Part shown: positions 4,515-62,182 of the stretch, in pieces
How positions within the stretch are numbered: the stretch's first letter is position 1
How the letters are laid out: each line of letters begins with the position of its first letter
NCBI GenBank assembly: GCA_041581135.1
Contig: JBFGCM010000001.1
Location: 32,389 to 96,388, forward strand
Source: Acidimicrobiia bacterium
GTDB lineage: Bacteria; Actinomycetota; Acidimicrobiia; Spongiisociales; UBA5794
Reading direction: 5' to 3'
Length of the DNA stretch: 64,000 nt
The notes under the pieces: model-generated
Told to the model about the DNA's origin: nothing
Databases searched by the model: none
What the model saw: only the letters and a program-made list of their open reading frames with translations
Program-made: the position numbers and the translations under genes

Positions 4515-5114
4515 ATGGAAAACGTGGGCGCCGCCTGGAACGAGCGCTTTGCGGGGAAAGCGTATCTGTTCGGCATCGAGCCGAACCGCTTCGTGGTGGA
4601 GTTGTGCAGCGAGTTCTCGCCGGGTCGGGCGCTCGATCTCGGCTGCGGCGAGGGCCGCAATGCCGTGTGGCTCGCCAACCGGGGACACGAGGTGGTTGCG
4701 GTGGACATCGCGCGCGCCGGACTGGTGAAGGCGGCGCGGCTCGGCGATGCCGCCGGCGTGGAGGTCGAGTGGATCGAGGCCGATCTGCGGGAATGGGTGC
4801 CGGAGCCTTCCACGTTCGATCTCGTCCTGCTGTGTTATCTCCAGCTGCCTGAGGAGAGCCGGGTGAGCGTGCATCGCAGTGCAGCCGCGTCGTTGGTCGA
4901 CGGTGGCCGGCTCGTGCTCATCGCGCACCACTTGGACAACCTGAGCAAGGGCATCGGCGGGCCGCCGACGCCCGATGTGCTGTTCACCGAAGAGGACCTC
5001 CGCCGCGACTTCAGCGATCTCCACGTGGAACGGTTGGAAACCGTCACCCGCCCGGTGGAATCCGAGGCGGGCGTTCGCAACGCCATCGACGTGATCTGCA
5101 TCGCCCGCAAATGA
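4515..5114 (+). CDS. Class I SAM-dependent methyltransferase
   Basis: This is the C-terminal 199 aa of the 899-aa shadow ORF. Motif I is ALDLGCGEGRNAVWLA. The ATG at 4515 was chosen as start. The stop overlaps the start of the next gene (ATGA at 5111-5114). Confidence 0.8.
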   Translation: MENVGAAWNERFAGKAYLFGIEPNRFVVELCSEFSPGRALDLGCGEGRNAVWLANRGHEVVAVDIARAGLVKAARLGDAAGVEVEWIEADLREWVPEPSTFDLVLLCYLQLPEESRVSVHRSAAASLVDGGRLVLIAHHLDNLSKGIGGPPTPDVLFTEEDLRRDFSDLHVERLETVTRPVESEAGVRNAIDVICIARK

Positions 5115-7984
5115 CCGTCCCCACCGACGCGATCATGCGGTTTCTGGCGGACCTCGCCCCGGAGAAGGGTCTGGACGCGACCGTCCATGTGGGGCGGGCC
5201 TCGGATTTCGCCGCGCTCGGGCAGTACCCGATGCCCATCTCGCTGGGATTCGATGGGCGCAGGATCTCGTCTCTGCCCGGCATCCGCACGTCGGACCGCC
5301 TGGAGCGCCTCATCGGCCTGGACGCGCTACGGCCGGCCGAGCGGTTCTTGCGAATCGGCTGGCTCTGGCTGTGTGGGACCGTCGACGAGGATGGACAGGA
5401 GCGGCCGTACTTCCTTCCCTTGCTGTCGGCGTCCGTGACCTTTCACAAACGCGTGTTGCACTACGTGCCACGTATCACAGATGAGCTCGAACTGGTCCAA
5501 GGTCTCGTGCACGATCAGCATGCAGTGGACGAGCTGACGGCCCGAGCGCTCTCGCTCGGCAACAAGATGCCTTCCACGTCTGCCGCGCTCAACGAGGGCA
5601 TGCTGGCGCGCCTCCCGACGCTGCAGCGGTGGGTACACGACATGCTGGACGCCGCCGGGCTGCCTCCGGCCACCCTCAAGGGTGCCGCCGTGCATCCGTG
5701 GTCGCTTCGATCTGGTCCCGGCCTCGCGGTGGCGGTGGGGGCGGCGGTGTACCCACGTCGCGACGCCGGCGCAGTGGGTCTGCGCGACACCCTCCAAGCC
5801 TGGTCGGGCGTTGACGTGTCGCAGACGGCGTTCGGCCACGTGTACGAAGGGGCGGGAACGGTCGCAGGGGCCGATGTGGAGTCGATCGAATCTCCGTTCC
5901 CGTTGAATCGGGCGCAGCGGGATGCCATCTCGCGTGCTCGAGAGCAGGCGGTGACCGTCGTGGCGGGACCGCCGGGCACCGGCAAGAGCCACCTTGCGGC
6001 GGCACTCGCCGTCGACGAGGTGGCACGCGGCAACAGTGTGCTCGTCGCCACCCAGAGCGAACACGCCGCCGATGTCATCGTCGACATGCTCGACCGCTAC
6101 CCGGGACCGCAACACGTTCGCTTCGGTGATCGCGCCCACCGCGAGCGCACGGCGCTCGCCTTGGCGGACGGGCTGGCCGCTCCACTCCATCACGCCGAGG
6201 TGGCGGAACTGCACGAGCGACTCGACACGGCTCGGATCCGGAGAAGCGGCGTGCTGGTTCGGATCCACGAAGAGCTGGCACGGGAGCTTGCCCTGGTGGA
6301 GGGGCTGCAAACCCGGACGAGGTTGGCCGCCCTGTCAGCGCTGGTGCCGAACGTCGACGACCCCGCCTTCGACGTCGGCGCAGTCGTGAAGGCAGAGTCG
6401 CGGTTGGATGCCACCGGCTTGTTCGGCGGGAGCCGCCGCCGGCGCGCGGAGCGGCGCCTCCGCAAGCTGTTGGGAGCGGCTCCGGTGGTCTCCATCGATG
6501 ACCTGCGGCGCGGTACCGAACTCGCACGTGCTGAAGGTGCGGTTCGCGCCGGCCTGGCCGGCGGCGGGGTGAGCCTCACGGGACTGTGGGACGCACTGGA
6601 CGCAGCCGAGATCGCTGTGCGTGAAGCCGCAGGAGCGGTGGTGGAGGCGAGGCGCCGACACCGCCACAACGATGCCGGGCTCTCCAGCCGGGCCGTGGCG
6701 GCGCTGGCCTCGGCGCTCCGCGCCGGAGCCGTGCGTCGTCGGACCATATTGGGCGAGATGCGCGCCCAGCACTTCCTCGACGTGCTTCCGTTGTGGGTGG
6801 GGACGCTGACGGAGATCGACCAGACGCTGCCGCTGGAACCTGGTGTCTTCGATGTCGTCATCTTCGACGAGGCGTCACAGATCGATCAGCTCCGCGCCGC
6901 GGCAGCACTGTCGCGTGCCAAGCGAGTCGTGGTCCTCGGCGATCCGCGACAGCTGCGCCACGTGTCGTTCGTATCGGACGAGAGGATGGACGGTGCCGCC
7001 GAAGCTCACGACATCCACGGCGCCCTGCGCGGGATGCTCGACGTGCGACGCAACAGTCTCTACGACGTCGCGGCAGGTCTGGGAGACGTGGTGCATCTCG
7101 ATGAGCACTTCCGCTCGATCCCGCACATCATCGGTTTCTCCGATCGGCAGTTCTACGACGGTCGGCTCCGCTTGATGACGCAGCACCCTGCCAACGAGGC
7201 AGCCGATGGCATCCACATACGGACGGTGGAGGGGCAACGCAACGACGACGGCGTCAATGCCGAGGAGGTGCGTGCCGCGGTCGAGGTGGTGCACGAAGCC
7301 ACCCGGCACGGCGAGACCAGCATCGGGGTGGTGACGCCGTTCCGTGCCCAGGCCGATGCACTGGCCGAGGCGCTGCTGGCCGAGTTCGGCCCCGAGGAAC
7401 TCGAGCGCTTCGGTATCAGAGCCGGCACCGTGCACCAGTTCCAGGGGGCGGAGCGTGACGTGATGATCGTGTCATTGGCCATCAGCCAGGCGGATCTGAG
7501 CTCCTCGCTCCGGTTCATCTCCGATCCGAACCTGTTCAACGTGATGATCACCCGGGCGAGGCGGCGCATGGTGGTGGTCACCTCGGTGGCCCCGATCGAC
7601 TACCCCACCGGGCTGGTCGAGGACTACCTGGAGTATGCCCACCATCCTCCCCAACCGTCGGCCCGTTCCGATGTTCCTCCCGGGTGGATCGGCGAGCTGA
7701 CCACGAGGCTCCGCGGCTACTCCGTGCTGGTGGTGCCGAACTACCCCGTAGCGGGGTGGACCATCGACATGGCCGTGGGTAGGGGAGAGGCCGCGTTCGG
7801 CGTGGAGTGCGAAGTGCATCCAGACGGTCTGGACGCCCACGTCGAGCGCCACTTGGCGCTACGTCGTGCCGGCTGGACGATGACTGACGCGTTCATGAGC
7901 CGCTGGCTCGCCCAGCAGGACGAGGCGGTCGACTCGCTGGTCGCCGCGGTCATGGCGCGCGATCCGGACTTCACAAAGGCTTGA
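5111..7984 (+). CDS. SF1 (Upf1/DNA2-like) helicase with C-terminal restriction-endonuclease-like (DUF559/Vsr-like) domain
   Basis: Walker A is VVAGPPGTGKSH and Walker B is VVIFDEASQ. Helicase motifs GDPRQL, TVHQFQGAERD and VMITRARRR are present. The C-terminal ~100 aa (GWTIDMAVG...GVECEVHPD...RRAGW) resemble the REase-like module common on these helicases. Confidence 0.8.
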   Translation: MTVPTDAIMRFLADLAPEKGLDATVHVGRASDFAALGQYPMPISLGFDGRRISSLPGIRTSDRLERLIGLDALRPAERFLRIGWLWLCGTVDEDGQERPYFLPLLSASVTFHKRVLHYVPRITDELELVQGLVHDQHAVDELTARALSLGNKMPSTSAALNEGMLARLPTLQRWVHDMLDAAGLPPATLKGAAVHPWSLRSGPGLAVAVGAAVYPRRDAGAVGLRDTLQAWSGVDVSQTAFGHVYEGAGTVAGADVESIESPFPLNRAQRDAISRAREQAVTVVAGPPGTGKSHLAAALAVDEVARGNSVLVATQSEHAADVIVDMLDRYPGPQHVRFGDRAHRERTALALADGLAAPLHHAEVAELHERLDTARIRRSGVLVRIHEELARELALVEGLQTRTRLAALSALVPNVDDPAFDVGAVVKAESRLDATGLFGGSRRRRAERRLRKLLGAAPVVSIDDLRRGTELARAEGAVRAGLAGGGVSLTGLWDALDAAEIAVREAAGAVVEARRRHRHNDAGLSSRAVAALASALRAGAVRRRTILGEMRAQHFLDVLPLWVGTLTEIDQTLPLEPGVFDVVIFDEASQIDQLRAAAALSRAKRVVVLGDPRQLRHVSFVSDERMDGAAEAHDIHGALRGMLDVRRNSLYDVAAGLGDVVHLDEHFRSIPHIIGFSDRQFYDGRLRLMTQHPANEAADGIHIRTVEGQRNDDGVNAEEVRAAVEVVHEATRHGETSIGVVTPFRAQADALAEALLAEFGPEELERFGIRAGTVHQFQGAERDVMIVSLAISQADLSSSLRFISDPNLFNVMITRARRRMVVVTSVAPIDYPTGLVEDYLEYAHHPPQPSARSDVPPGWIGELTTRLRGYSVLVVPNYPVAGWTIDMAVGRGEAAFGVECEVHPDGLDAHVERHLALRRAGWTMTDAFMSRWLAQQDEAVDSLVAAVMARDPDFTKA

Positions 7985-56096: not shown

Positions 56097-56615
56097 TCAC
56101 ATCACGATGAGCAGGCTGACGATCACGGCGAGCGCGACGACGAAGGCTCCGGCGATCAGGGATGCCACCACTGCAGCGAGATAGACCGGGCTCACCAGCC
56201 GTCCGAGGTCGAACACCCCGAGATCCTGTACTCGCCCGGCCACTCGTCGTACGTCGAGGAGGCCGGTGAGCACGGACCGCAACCGTGACCAGAAGCTGCC
56301 GCGGGTGACGCCCCTCATCGATGACGCTGCCTCGATGGCCTGCCCGACCGCCTCAGTCGAGCCGGCCGCGGCCCGTCGCGGGAGGGTCACCACATCGGAA
56401 AGCAGCCGGGAGAAGTCCCACAGCACCAGGCCGGGCAGTGCCAATACCAGGGCCACGATCAGCCCGATGATCACACGTCCCGCCGTGGGCCGGATGAGAG
56501 TGGCACCGATGAACAGACCGGCCGCCAGCACCACGATGCCGGCGGTACGGAGTGTCGAGGCGACCGACTGCATCGCCGGTGCCAACGACCCGACGAGGCC
56601 GCGGATCCGATCCAC
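56097..56615 (-). CDS. Membrane protein, unknown function
   Basis: 172 aa with three or four hydrophobic segments. Confidence 0.5.
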   Translation of the reverse strand: MDRIRGLVGSLAPAMQSVASTLRTAGIVVLAAGLFIGATLIRPTAGRVIIGLIVALVLALPGLVLWDFSRLLSDVVTLPRRAAAGSTEAVGQAIEAASSMRGVTRGSFWSRLRSVLTGLLDVRRVAGRVQDLGVFDLGRLVSPVYLAAVVASLIAGAFVVALAVIVSLLIVM

Positions 56616-56651: not shown

Positions 56652-57293
56652 TCACGCTTTGAGGGCTCCGACGTAGCGGTCCATCTGGGCGACGTACCGG
56701 TCGGCGTCTTCCTTGGCCTGCGGGTGACGGTTGCCGAGCGCAACCGCGGCGAAGCGGGCGCCGCGGTAGTAGGGCACCAACGCCTCGCGCGGCATCGCCT
56801 TCGGTCCGGGTTCCGCGGGGCCGGTGACGGGTGGCTCTTGTGACGTGGGCGGGAGGTCCATGGCCTGGAGCGCCTCCACCAGCTCTTCTTCAGGGAGCCG
56901 GTCGGCGAAGTCTCGCGATTCCATGCGGAACAGCTCGGAGCCATCGGTGCCGACCACGACCACCGTGGGCTTGGCGATGTTCCGCTGGTCCTTCGGATCG
57001 GCGGCACCGTATGGCTCGATGGCGGCGCTTCGGTCGGGATCGCTCAAGATGGGAAACGGCAGCTCGAGCTTGTCGATCATGGCCGCGTTCTGCTCGGGCG
57101 AGTCGATGACCACGCCGAACACTCGGGCTCCGGCGGCAAGGATGGCGTCGTGGTGGCGGGCCAAGCTGACCAGCTGGCCGTTGCAATAGGCTCACCAGTC
57201 GCCACGGAGGAACACCAAGACCGCCGGCGCATCCAAGTGGTCCGACAGGGTCCAATCCTCGGCGTTCTGATCGGTGATCGTGAAGTCGTGCAT
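56652..57293 (-). CDS. PRX_like2 / AhpC-TSA family peroxiredoxin-like protein with in-frame TGA at the catalytic Cys position (candidate selenoprotein, U-x-x-C)
   Basis: Track ORFs 57192..57488 (last 33 aa, MHDFTITDQNAEDWTLSDHLDAPAVLVFLRGDW) and 56652..57164 are in the same frame. They are separated only by TGA at 57194-57192. Read-through gives FLRGDW-U-AYCNGQL, which matches the family motif F-x-RG-x-W-C-P-x-C-x-x-Q-L. GAGGAG precedes the ATG at 57293. Confidence 0.7.
57159..57179 (-). promoter_or_regulatory. Candidate bacterial SECIS hairpin
   Basis: The mRNA reads UGA-GCCUAUUGCAAC-GGCCAGCU[GGUC]AGCUUGGCC. This forms a 5+3 bp stem with a bulged U and a GGUC tetraloop. The hairpin starts 12 nt after the UGA. 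Confidence 0.55.
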
Positions 57294-57310
57294 GGCTCTC
57301 CTCGTGACTG

Positions 57311-59776: not shown

Positions 59777-60565
59777 TCAGACACAGATGCCGCCGTCGGT
59801 CACCCCCCGGGCGCACAGCAACGTCTGTTCCACGGTCTTGAGGACGAAGCCCTCGCCGCTCTCGGATGGGGTGCCGAAGACGTGCAGCCGGATCCCCATG
59901 ACGGAGTCGTCACCCAGCCCGACCACGTCGTATGTGACCTCCCCGAGGTCGCCGACGGTCGGCGCCACCGACAGCCGAATCCGGGACGGCGGATCCGTGG
60001 ACGCCAGGGTCTCGGCGATGAGCAGTCCCAGCTCGGTCATGGTCTCGGTCTCGGGGGTCTCACCGAGGATGTCGATGAGCTGGCTCGTGGTGTCGTCGGT
60101 GCCGCCCAGGTAGGCGAGAAAGGCGGCGCTCGCCCAACCGGTGACGCCCTGCCACGTCAGCTCGTACCAGATCGACTGCGGAAGCTGACGGGCGTTGCCG
60201 GTGGCGACGAGATCATCGGTGAGTGGAGGCAGTGTCCCCAGTATCTCCTGGTCGGTTCCCGGCGCGGCACGGAAGTTGAGCACATCGTCATGTGCCACGG
60301 CGACGACGCCCAACACGTCGCCCGCCGCGGGGCCGAAGTCGATTGGCTCGCCGGGAAGGTCGGGCGGTGTCGAGGTGGTCGTCACCGGAGCCGTCGTTGG
60401 CGGCACCGTGGTCGGCGCCACCGTGGTGGGAGTCGGCGGCTCAGTGGTCGGCGCCACGGTGGTGGTCGGAGTGCCCGTGCCGTCGGCACCGCATGCGGCG
60501 ACGATCAGTGCCAGCGCCGTCAAGAGCAGCAGTACCCGTCGCCGACTGCGTATCGGCTCCCTCAT
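59777..60565 (-). CDS. Lipoprotein with Thr/Pro linker and SH3b-like segment
   Basis: The lipobox is LALIVAAC|GA. A PTTT-rich linker follows. The LNFRAAPGTDQEILGTL segment resembles bacterial SH3. Confidence 0.55.
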   Translation of the reverse strand: MREPIRSRRRVLLLLTALALIVAACGADGTGTPTTTVAPTTEPPTPTTVAPTTVPPTTAPVTTTSTPPDLPGEPIDFGPAAGDVLGVVAVAHDDVLNFRAAPGTDQEILGTLPPLTDDLVATGNARQLPQSIWYELTWQGVTGWASAAFLAYLGGTDDTTSQLIDILGETPETETMTELGLLIAETLASTDPPSRIRLSVAPTVGDLGEVTYDVVGLGDDSVMGIRLHVFGTPSESGEGFVLKTVEQTLLCARGVTDGGICV

Positions 60566-60676: not shown

Positions 60677-62182
60677 TCAGAAGGGTCGCTGGTCGACCCG
60701 GCGGTGGCGCCGGCGCTCGCCGCGCCGGCCTCGGCGCCGTCCGCTGGTGGCGAACACGATGGGTCCCGGGTAGGCATCGACCCGCGCCACGAGCGTGGAG
60801 CGTTCGTCGTCGGTGAGCCGGGTCGTCGGGCGGGTCCCCAACAGGGCATCGGCCTCTTCGAGCAGGATCACCGTCCCTGCCCGGTCGGCGAGGTCGAGCA
60901 ACTCGGCCAGGTTCTTCTCCGTCTCTCCGATGTACTTGCTGGTGATGGCCGTCAGATTGATCCGGTGGACGGTCGCTCCGGTGGCGAGTGCCAGCTCTTC
61001 GGCCTTGGCCGCCGCCAGCTCGGCGGGCAGCGTGAGCCGTTGCTTGTGGAACACCACCGGTGGCTTCGGCTCGCTGACGCCCGCAGCCCGAATCACGCGC
61101 AGCACCACGAACTCCGCCGGCTTCAATGGAGCGAAGCCGACGATGATGACCATACGTCCGGCGTCGATGTCGGCCGGCGTCGTTGTCGACTGGTCACAGC
61201 GAACGAAGAACGCCTCCTTGGGCGTGGTGCCGACGAATGCGCCGCGGTGCCAATGGTCCATGAGGAACGCTTCCACGGCCACACGAACTCGGCTCCACAG
61301 CTCTTCGTCGTTGGCCTCGAACGCCGCCCATTGGGTACCCGATTCGACGCTCCGCTCGAGGTACATGGCGGTCCGGCGCACCGAGACATACTGCACGGCC
61401 GGCTCCGTGGACGACGGTGATGCCAGCGTACGGGCCCCCCAGGCCACGTGGCCGAGGTGGTCGAAGTGCCGGAGTCCGTTGATGCCCTCGATGGTGAGCG
61501 CGCTGTTCTCGTCGTCTGTGAGGCGGTGATCGAGGCCGACCACCCCACGGAGCACGGCATCGACGCCGGCCGGCGCCTTCCACACTCCGGTGTCGGCGTC
61601 GACGCGGGCGTACACACCCGCCATGGTGCCGCTTGCCGCCCGCGTGGTGGACGTATCGCCGCCGAGCTCGTCCGGGATGATCGGGCGGGGCACATACAGC
61701 GCGGCGTGCTCGCTACGCAGTGCGCCGTGGGCAGACAGCCACGCATCGATTGCCTGCACCGTGTCTCGGGTTGCATCCACTTGGGGTGGGTCCACGATGA
61801 GGAACGCGCGGTTGGAGGCGCAGAGGGCCTGCGCCGCCATGATCACGCCGGCGGCGGGGGCGTCGTGCAACGCCGCGGTGTCGGGGACACACAAGATTCC
61901 GAAGTCGTGACCGCCCAGGGCGTCGAGAGCGGCAACCAGGTCGAGTCCGCCGTCGGCGTCGGCCCGCACGATCATCGCGATGGCCCCGCCGTTGGTGAAG
62001 AACTGGCGAACCGCGTACGCCAGCTCGTGGTCGGCGGCCGGCCCGAACGCCGCCTCGAACTCGGTGAACGAGGTGACGCGCGTGGGCACGCCGATCGGAC
62101 CCGTTTCGGCCCAGCCGACGAAGGCGGCGATCGCGCTGTCAGTGGCGGTGATCGCTGGAGGCGGTGACGCGATGTCGGGCAT
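60677..62182 (-). CDS. Contractile-tail sheath protein fused to a degenerate, P-loop-less AAA+ fragment (possible relic of a contractile injection system)
   Basis: Trimmed to MPDIASPPP (ATGA overlap with the upstream gene). Sheath motifs are AAFVGWAETGP, TGVWKAPAG, WGARTL, YVSVRRT and PLKPAEFVV. The last ~115 aa are HRINLTAITSKYIGETEKNLAELLDLADRAGTVILLEEADALLG, the AAA region after Walker A as in eCIS ATPases. The ORF then ends in an Arg-rich tail. Confidence 0.7.
   Translation of the reverse strand: MPDIASPPPAITATDSAIAAFVGWAETGPIGVPTRVTSFTEFEAAFGPAADHELAYAVRQFFTNGGAIAMIVRADADGGLDLVAALDALGGHDFGILCVPDTAALHDAPAAGVIMAAQALCASNRAFLIVDPPQVDATRDTVQAIDAWLSAHGALRSEHAALYVPRPIIPDELGGDTSTTRAASGTMAGVYARVDADTGVWKAPAGVDAVLRGVVGLDHRLTDDENSALTIEGINGLRHFDHLGHVAWGARTLASPSSTEPAVQYVSVRRTAMYLERSVESGTQWAAFEANDEELWSRVRVAVEAFLMDHWHRGAFVGTTPKEAFFVRCDQSTTTPADIDAGRMVIIVGFAPLKPAEFVVLRVIRAAGVSEPKPPVVFHKQRLTLPAELAAAKAEELALATGATVHRINLTAITSKYIGETEKNLAELLDLADRAGTVILLEEADALLGTRPTTRLTDDERSTLVARVDAYPGPIVFATSGRRRGRRGERRRHRRVDQRPF

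Follow-up and report, generated by a model that had tools for sequence, protein, structure and literature searches.

A probable bacterial SECIS hairpin within the coding region of a peroxiredoxin-fold UxxC gene from an Acidimicrobiia bacterium

In the fdhF genes of Escherichia coli and Salmonella, the selenocysteine insertion sequence (SECIS) lies inside the open reading frame (ORF), right after the UGA that is read as selenocysteine (Sec). The fdhF element has the sequence UGACACGGCCCAUCGGUUGCAGGUCUGCACC..., with a GGUC loop at nucleotides (nt) 22-25 and a bulged U18 on its 5' arm (PMC4489274). More generally, a SECIS typically consists of a 6-8 bp stem and a loop in which a conserved G follows the UGA at a distance of about 20 nt (PMC4605307). 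On the protein side, PF00578 proteins with UxxC or UxxU motifs and Cys-containing homologues are a recognised selenoprotein family (PMC13188914), and in Actinomarinales, an order of Acidimicrobiia, the full set of selA, selB, selC and selD was reported (preprint 10.64898/2026.04.03.716425). Here we describe a hairpin with a GGUC loop that follows an in-frame UGA on the minus strand of a 64,000-nt stretch of contig JBFGCM010000001.1 (assembly GCA_041581135.1; hereafter the window) from an Acidimicrobiia bacterium of another order, Spongiisociales. Sequence comparison indicates that this hairpin is very probably a bacterial SECIS (bSECIS), situated within the coding region of a gene for a peroxiredoxin (Prx)-fold UxxC selenoprotein. 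It fits the typical dimensions given above.

The gene (Table 1) is interrupted by TGA at codon 34 only, in the context FLRGDW-U-AYC-NGQLVSLA. With Cys in place of the UGA, its product matched Pfam AhpC-TSA with an E value of 9e-24, and also Redoxin. Pairwise divergence at codon positions 1, 2 and 3 was 0.25, 0.17 and 0.51 over the 20 codons upstream of the UGA and 0.32, 0.25 and 0.56 downstream of it, a pattern which on both flanks shows that the same reading frame crosses the TGA. The residues R, G and D preceding the UGA are invariant and are spelled by 6, 4 and 2 different codons, respectively. Since 48 of the 62 called genes of the window end in TGA as their normal stop, UGA has undergone no genome-wide reassignment and the code is standard. 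When the window was scanned for further in-frame TGAs flanked on either side by coding signal, the codon-34 site was the only credible one; the remaining candidates were antisense to called genes or separated adjacent genes in the same frame. The purine-rich stretch in front of the start codon, to judge from its sequence, is likely the ribosome-binding site.

Protein searches for relatives returned mostly N-terminally shortened products with 64-81% query coverage, the signature of gene callers halting at a conserved TGA. At the DNA level, TGA was found at codon 34 in six loci from Acidimicrobiia metagenome-assembled genomes (MAGs), located with peptides unrelated to the hairpin, in all of the best 80 of 392 metagenome relatives, which were the ones inspected, and in the additional loci reached through C-terminal protein fragments (L090, L092, L093, L094, L097, L100, L103, L106 and L107). 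Taken together, all 96 relatives inspected, whose protein identity is 48-99%, have kept the TGA. One of these loci, L093, is the same-species counterpart in an independent MAG, with 99.5% identity over 10.8 kb, and the TGA is therefore no assembly error. More distant homologues with 43-52% identity (L087, L088, L089 and L091; P0023, P0047 and P0118) carry TGC at this codon and display the motif CAYC or CSYC. The UGA is in frame within one conserved reading frame, and Cys takes its place in homologues.

An earlier note on this DNA had drawn the hairpin from the window sequence, and its sequence and fold on the minus-strand mRNA proved to be exactly as written there. Folded alone, the 21-mer adopted the structure ((((((((....))).))))) at −10.6 kcal/mol. 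The minimum free energy (MFE) structures of the 96-nt and 42-nt contexts included the same hairpin; in the 46-nt context a competing fold won, and the centroid retained 7 of the 8 hairpin pairs. Counted from the U of UGA, the loop comprises nt 24-27. It thus lies 20 nt after the UGA, with its two Gs as the 21st and 22nd nt after that codon, and the hairpin region is translated as G-Q-L-V-S-L-A.

For the assessment of conservation, 78 distinct main-type segments of 96 nt were aligned. RNAalifold returned a single structure for them, a 7-bp hairpin GCCAGCU[GGUC]AGC-N-UGGC, which is retained in 95 of the 96 TGA relatives; in the remaining one, L100, another hairpin occupies this site. The GGUC loop was invariant in 78 of 78 sequences, four of the pairs never varied, and loop and upper stem were the invariant parts of the element. 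The 12-nt length of the spacer was likewise invariant across the 95 main-type sequences. The eighth pair proposed in the earlier note, the G-C pair 46:66 at the bottom, was unpaired in 56 of the 78 relatives. The conserved stem thus comprises 7 bp, not 8, and an extension of the stem by 46:66 or 45:67 was rejected because these pairs are not conserved.

The earlier note had further suggested looking for the hairpin in orthologues and for covariation in its stem, and both inspections came out in its favor. Compensatory changes were seen at pair 48:64, with CG in 66 sequences, GU in 4, UG in 3, AU in 2, UA in 2 and another combination in 1. Column 48 is a silent third position of a Gly codon and column 64, 16 nt away, the first position of an Ala, Thr or Ser codon. 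Column 64 changed in 8 cases (Ala to Thr or Ser), each time together with a pairing change at column 48. The covariation gave a Fisher p of 2e-8, uncorrected for phylogeny, and occurred in at least two clades. In L067, the sole exception at 48:64, a register-shifted stem appears possible from reading the sequence. Because a G-U wobble corresponds to an A-C mismatch on the opposite strand, it is the mRNA strand that is under selection. This bears on the idea of a DNA-level element, in which the palindrome CCAGCTGG would be a protein-binding, restriction or methylation site. The palindrome is indeed self-complementary and would permit an alternative 4-bp fold, GGCC[AGCU]GGUC. The wobbles, G-U or U-G at 48:64 and 51:60, however, keep the pairing on the mRNA strand only, column 64, the covarying partner, is not part of the palindrome, L100 has its different hairpin in place of it, and the element is confined to the region downstream of the TGA in forms that carry one. 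We regard the probability of a DNA-level element as close to negligible. The hairpin is under RNA-level selection, on the mRNA strand.

This selection was also apparent at silent sites. Third-codon-position divergence, 0.51-0.56 in the flanks, dropped to 0.013 within the core of the hairpin. The codon entropy for Gln+6, Leu+7, Val+8 and Ser+9 was 0-0.1 bit, while Leu, Arg, Ser, Gly, Ala and Pro residues of equal conservation elsewhere in the gene had 1.4-2.2 bits. The Cys forms have the peptides GQLVALA or GQLATMA, spelled with CTC, GTG and GCC, and are devoid of such a hairpin. In the spacer, a separate observation concerned codon usage: all 78 sequences have TGC for Cys37 (57183-57185), and 89% have AAC for Asn38 (57180-57182). 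As usage of neighboring two-fold codons (Tyr, Asp) is divided about 60/40, the silent-site constraint may extend upstream of the stem into the spacer.

The deviating relative L100 (orthologue P0086, 53% identity) reads RGDF-UGA-TYCHGQLAVLA, with the motif F-U-T-Y-C-H. Its hairpin, at positions 380-425 of that locus, is ACGGCC[AGUU]GGCCGU, with a folding energy of −10.0 kcal/mol, a shuffle z-score of −3.9 and a loop starting 16 nt after the UGA. The G-U at positions 2-3 of its AGUU loop is the only loop feature that it has in common with both the main type and fdhF.

Several observations weigh against a SECIS. To begin with, the folding energy of the hairpin showed no significant excess stability over shuffled controls, with z-scores of −0.62 (96 nt), 0.01 (46 nt), 0.03 (42 nt) and −1.92 (21 nt). 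The earlier note had named this comparison as a possible refutation. The energy is no better than that of the shuffles, but the experimentally validated fdhF SECIS fails in the same test (z-scores of −0.91 with 42 nt and −0.67 with its 17-nt minimal element), and the shuffle criterion is therefore powerless and refutes nothing. We also implemented the published bSECIS criteria (PMC13188914), namely a loop of 3-9 nt, a stem of 4-16 bp, a G in the first two loop positions, a spacing of 16-37 nt and an MFE of at most −7.5 kcal/mol. The hairpin satisfies them all, with a 4-nt GGUC loop, 7-8 bp, 20 nt and the energy given above. In this window of 68% GC, a passing hairpin also followed 260 of 400 random TGA trinucleotides (65%), and one of equal or greater stability 48.5% of 400 random window TGAs. 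The criteria are thus non-discriminating here and were rejected as evidence on their own. Single-sequence evidence for the hairpin is worthless in this window. No Rfam family matched the hairpin, and no SECIS family was hit either at gathering score over the whole window or at E ≤ 10 within 57080-57300; which SECIS models that release contains was left unchecked.

These numbers would suit a chance hairpin, a stem-loop typical of GC-rich coding DNA behind a TGA that is a true stop, either of a pseudogene or of the first of two small ORFs. Public gene calls also agree with such an arrangement, as they consist of a 33-36-aa ORF up to the TGA and a 150-183-aa ORF from a downstream GTG, TTG or ATG. 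Nevertheless, a chance hairpin is extremely unlikely. It would leave unexplained a TGA at one and the same codon in every relative inspected, with coding periodicity in the same frame on either side, and Cys at the aligned position in homologues. Moreover, the Prx fold has its first strands, and the redox motif one of its halves, in the 33 residues upstream of the TGA, and frozen synonymous sites with compensatory changes are unexpected for a chance structure. The significance of the hairpin comes from its conservation, not from generic foldability. A GGUC tetraloop closed by at least 7 bp, 16-37 nt after a TGA, is rare, being found for 2 of 1467 TGAs. The only other such TGA in the window, at 4864 on the plus strand, has a stem of 8 bp and a loop 28 nt after it. 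It is out of frame with an overlapping plus-strand ORF and antisense to a penicillin-amidase gene, and the hairpin behind it is probably due to chance.

A further adverse point concerns sampling. The loci L007-L086 were retrieved by a peptide pattern that included GQLVS, and their amino-acid conservation is in part a retrieval artefact. The conservation of their synonymous sites is unaffected, provided that the back-translation was fully degenerate. It could then be argued that the conservation reflects selection on the peptide GQLVSLA combined with codon bias, with no function of the RNA. GQLV is indeed conserved in Cys homologues too, and GGC, CAG, CTG, GTC and AGC all end in G or C, as favored at 68% GC. 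However, the same residues use 4-6 codons elsewhere in the gene, with the much higher entropies reported above, and the Cys homologues spell them with other codons. The silent Gly third position, in addition, co-varies with a non-synonymous change 16 nt away, and the same nucleotide pattern was seen in 16 loci obtained without the hairpin peptide. An origin in peptide selection and codon bias is therefore highly unlikely.

Sec machinery was not detected either. ARAGORN identified no tRNA-Sec in the 64-kb window or in 35 loci, and Pfam searches found no SelA, SelB or SelD among 31 window proteins nor in the fetched flanks. This would be in line with an element unrelated to Sec, such as near-cognate read-through of the UGA by Trp or Cys, or a structure for translational pausing or attenuation. 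We consider such a role very unlikely. The residue aligned to the UGA in homologues is the redox Cys of CxxC, a classic Sec/Cys pair. The G-U of the loop is found where published SECIS models put the SelB contact, at the canonical distance, and the element is found strictly together with TGA, not in the TGC forms.

The last of these objections arise from the comparison with fdhF, whose SECIS sequence was identical in 5413 E. coli records and agrees with what the earlier note had stated of it, a GGUC loop and one bulged U on the 5' arm. Both elements are positioned inside the ORF right after the UGA and have an identical GGUC tetraloop on a short upper stem, which a single 1-nt bulge interrupts. 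The stem base follows the UGA after 11 nt in fdhF and after 12-13 nt here, and the loop after 18 and 20 nt, i.e. 2 nt further, with the loop G-U at nt 23-24 and 25-26, respectively. Here the 3' arm carries the bulge, whose base may be any of the four (C in 33, U in 30, G in 11 and A in 4 of the 78 sequences), whereas U18 on the 5' arm of fdhF is reported to be functionally important. The earlier note had seen its confidence lowered by this difference. The worry is justified, as the bulge does sit on the arm opposite to that in fdhF, but harmless. The bulged base is not conserved and hence not equivalent to U18. In fdhF, a structure of about 40 nt includes a lower helix towards the UGA, while RNAalifold here detected conserved pairing only within the 7-bp hairpin. 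The two stems differ in sequence, and the host protein is unrelated to the fdhF product. Compared with the consensus bSECIS model, the window hairpin is within every constraint, and some orthologue cores, at only −4.6 to −5.2 kcal/mol, do not reach the limit of −7.5 kcal/mol. Even these weakest cores match the fdhF minimal element (−4.2 kcal/mol) in stability. By its sequence, the hairpin is not of fdhF type in detail and fits the generic bSECIS model.

If the SECIS hairpin works by analogy with the SelB systems of E. coli and Aquifex, a ribosome nearing UGA-34 would have the stem base, 12-13 nt downstream, at its mRNA entrance. The C-terminal winged-helix domains of SelB (WHD3/4), with GTP and Sec-tRNA(Sec) bound to the protein, would then bind the upper stem and its GGUC loop, keeping the ternary complex at the A site, where it could outcompete release factor 2, and Sec would be inserted as the first residue of UxxC. 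Afterwards, the ribosome would melt the hairpin and translate G-Q-L-V-S-L-A.

Table 1. Positions of the predicted selenoprotein gene and its elements in the window, and of relatives whose gene is split in public annotation (positions within the respective locus).
Feature	Position	Strand	Description
Predicted selenoprotein gene	56652..57293	minus	213 codons + stop; from translation, Pfam AhpC-TSA and codon-position divergence
Start codon ATG	57293-57291	minus	
Terminal stop codon TGA	56654-56652	minus	
In-frame UGA, codon 34	57192..57194	minus	first position of the UxxC redox motif GDW-U-AYC
Purine-rich stretch GAGGAGAG	57296..57303	minus	immediately 5' of the ATG; read directly from the sequence
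12-nt spacer GCCUAUUGCAAC	57180..57191	minus	GCC UAU UGC AAC = A-Y-C-N; Cys37 codon at 57185-57183
Probable SECIS hairpin	57159..57179	minus	GGCCAGCU[GGUC]AGC-U-UGGCC; conserved core 57178-57160 (7 bp)
Hairpin 5' arm	57179-57172	minus	GGCCAGCU
Apical tetraloop GGUC	57168..57171	minus	presumed SelB contact G25, U26 (U of UGA = 1), by analogy
Hairpin 3' arm	57167-57159	minus	AGC 57167-57165, bulged U 57164, UGGCC 57163-57159
Split-call locus L093	2263-2904		
Split-call locus L097	257-943		
Split-call locus L100	278-952		
Split-call locus L107	266-946		
Split-call locus P0003/L090	582-1259		

The predicted protein combines a known fold with an extension of its own. In alignments with BCP/PrxQ proteins of solved structure, Cys37 falls on the peroxidatic Cys and the UGA on the Thr or Ser of the TxxC motif of peroxiredoxins; this replacement would yield a thioredoxin-like UxxC center. 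An AlphaFold (AF2) model of the full-length orthologue P0003 was confident, with a pLDDT of 96. Residues 1-147 of the model form a Prx fold which matches Bcp4, AhpE and BcpB with TM scores of about 0.85 normalised to the target. The C-terminal extension (window 56655-56920, minus strand, residues ~125-213; about 65-90 residues long and predicted to be helical) is conserved, with the pattern PPTSQ..GPAEPGPKAMP..PYYRGARFAA..RH..D..Y..MDRY. It had no Pfam match, and in the P0003 model it consists of two long helices outside all matches in the PDB.

Among described families, the closest by definition are the Prx-like thiol:disulfide oxidoreductase selenoproteins (PF00578) of Geobacter, Syntrophus, Desulfotalea and other bacteria, which have in common with our gene product the AhpC/TSA domain, Sec as the first residue of UxxC and the existence of Cys homologues. 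They differ in that the present proteins come from Acidimicrobiia (Actinomycetota) and carry the two-helix C-terminal extension. The product deduced from the sequence fits the definition of this family, to whose deltaproteobacterial members it is likened by definition, not by orthology. The BCP/PrxQ and AhpE peroxiredoxins (PDB 3hjp, 2cx3, 1xxu and 5epf) have the same fold over about 147 residues, but have the conserved Thr or Ser of TxxC where Sec34 is predicted here, and lack the helical extension. The best NCBIfam match was to the SelL-related redox proteins (Prx-like2; NF040769, cd02970), with which the thioredoxin-like redox motif on a Prx fold is in common. Membership in NF040769 was rejected, as the score was 45.8 bits against a cut-off of 120 and covered residues 3-89 only. 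Membership in the NCBIfam PrxU family was rejected as well, the score being below the cut-off.

The UGA has consequences for annotation. Besides the split calls already mentioned (Table 1), the Joint Genome Institute (JGI) product P0003 has Trp where the DNA has TGA, and this codon was therefore translated with the wrong code. Nearly all public gene calls seen for this family begin after the UGA, so that the active-site half of the protein is missing from databases. Recognition of the SECIS would restore a full-length UxxC redox enzyme and would identify these Acidimicrobiia as users of selenium, for which there are hardly any reports in the class. Elements of this type are already known, and the general understanding of Sec insertion in bacteria stays as it was. 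The alignment can nevertheless be seen as a natural experiment on what a SECIS needs, with a frozen loop and upper stem, a free bulge base, one covarying lower pair and a second hairpin solution, and it could guide studies of SelB-SECIS specificity outside Proteobacteria. To a wider proposition we give slightly less than an even chance: that these genes form an uncatalogued selenoprotein clade, widespread in Acidimicrobiia of soil, sediment and marine habitats, in which a Prx fold with UxxC and an unmatched two-helix extension is joined to a nucleotide-frozen SECIS with the GGUC loop of fdhF. If this were true, Sec use in Acidimicrobiia would be far commoner than current annotation shows, and the branch with the AGUU loop would point to an N-G-U-N rule of SelB recognition common to Pseudomonadota and Actinomycetota.

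Gene neighborhood was not conserved among the loci, except in the same-species MAG L093, and therefore offers no operon clue to function. Directly downstream of the gene, at 56097-56615 on the minus strand, lies a 172-aa ORF with no Pfam match. By eye it has hydrophobic stretches that look membrane-spanning, and it adjoins the gene only in L093, not in other lineages. At locus L092 (6692-8420), from a 3.69-Mb Acidimicrobiia contig, the orthologue is found a few kb from cytochrome oxidase genes, SCO1/SenC, a second AhpC-TSA/SCO1-like gene and an LpqE-like gene, a redox and copper-handling neighborhood that the window does not show. LpqE-like proteins are copper chaperones.

Two other regions of the window drew attention. 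At 60677-62182 on the minus strand, a 501-aa ORF has Phage_sheath_1 and Phage_sheath_1C domains N-terminally and an AAA ATPase domain C-terminally, and is adjoined by an SH3_3-domain gene at 59777-60523. It may belong to a contractile injection system or a prophage remnant, or be two genes merged by a crude gene call. On the plus strand, 5111-7981 encodes a 957-aa superfamily-1 helicase (AAA_11/AAA_12) with a C-terminal nuclease-like REase_MTES_1575 domain, which may be a defence or repair gene.

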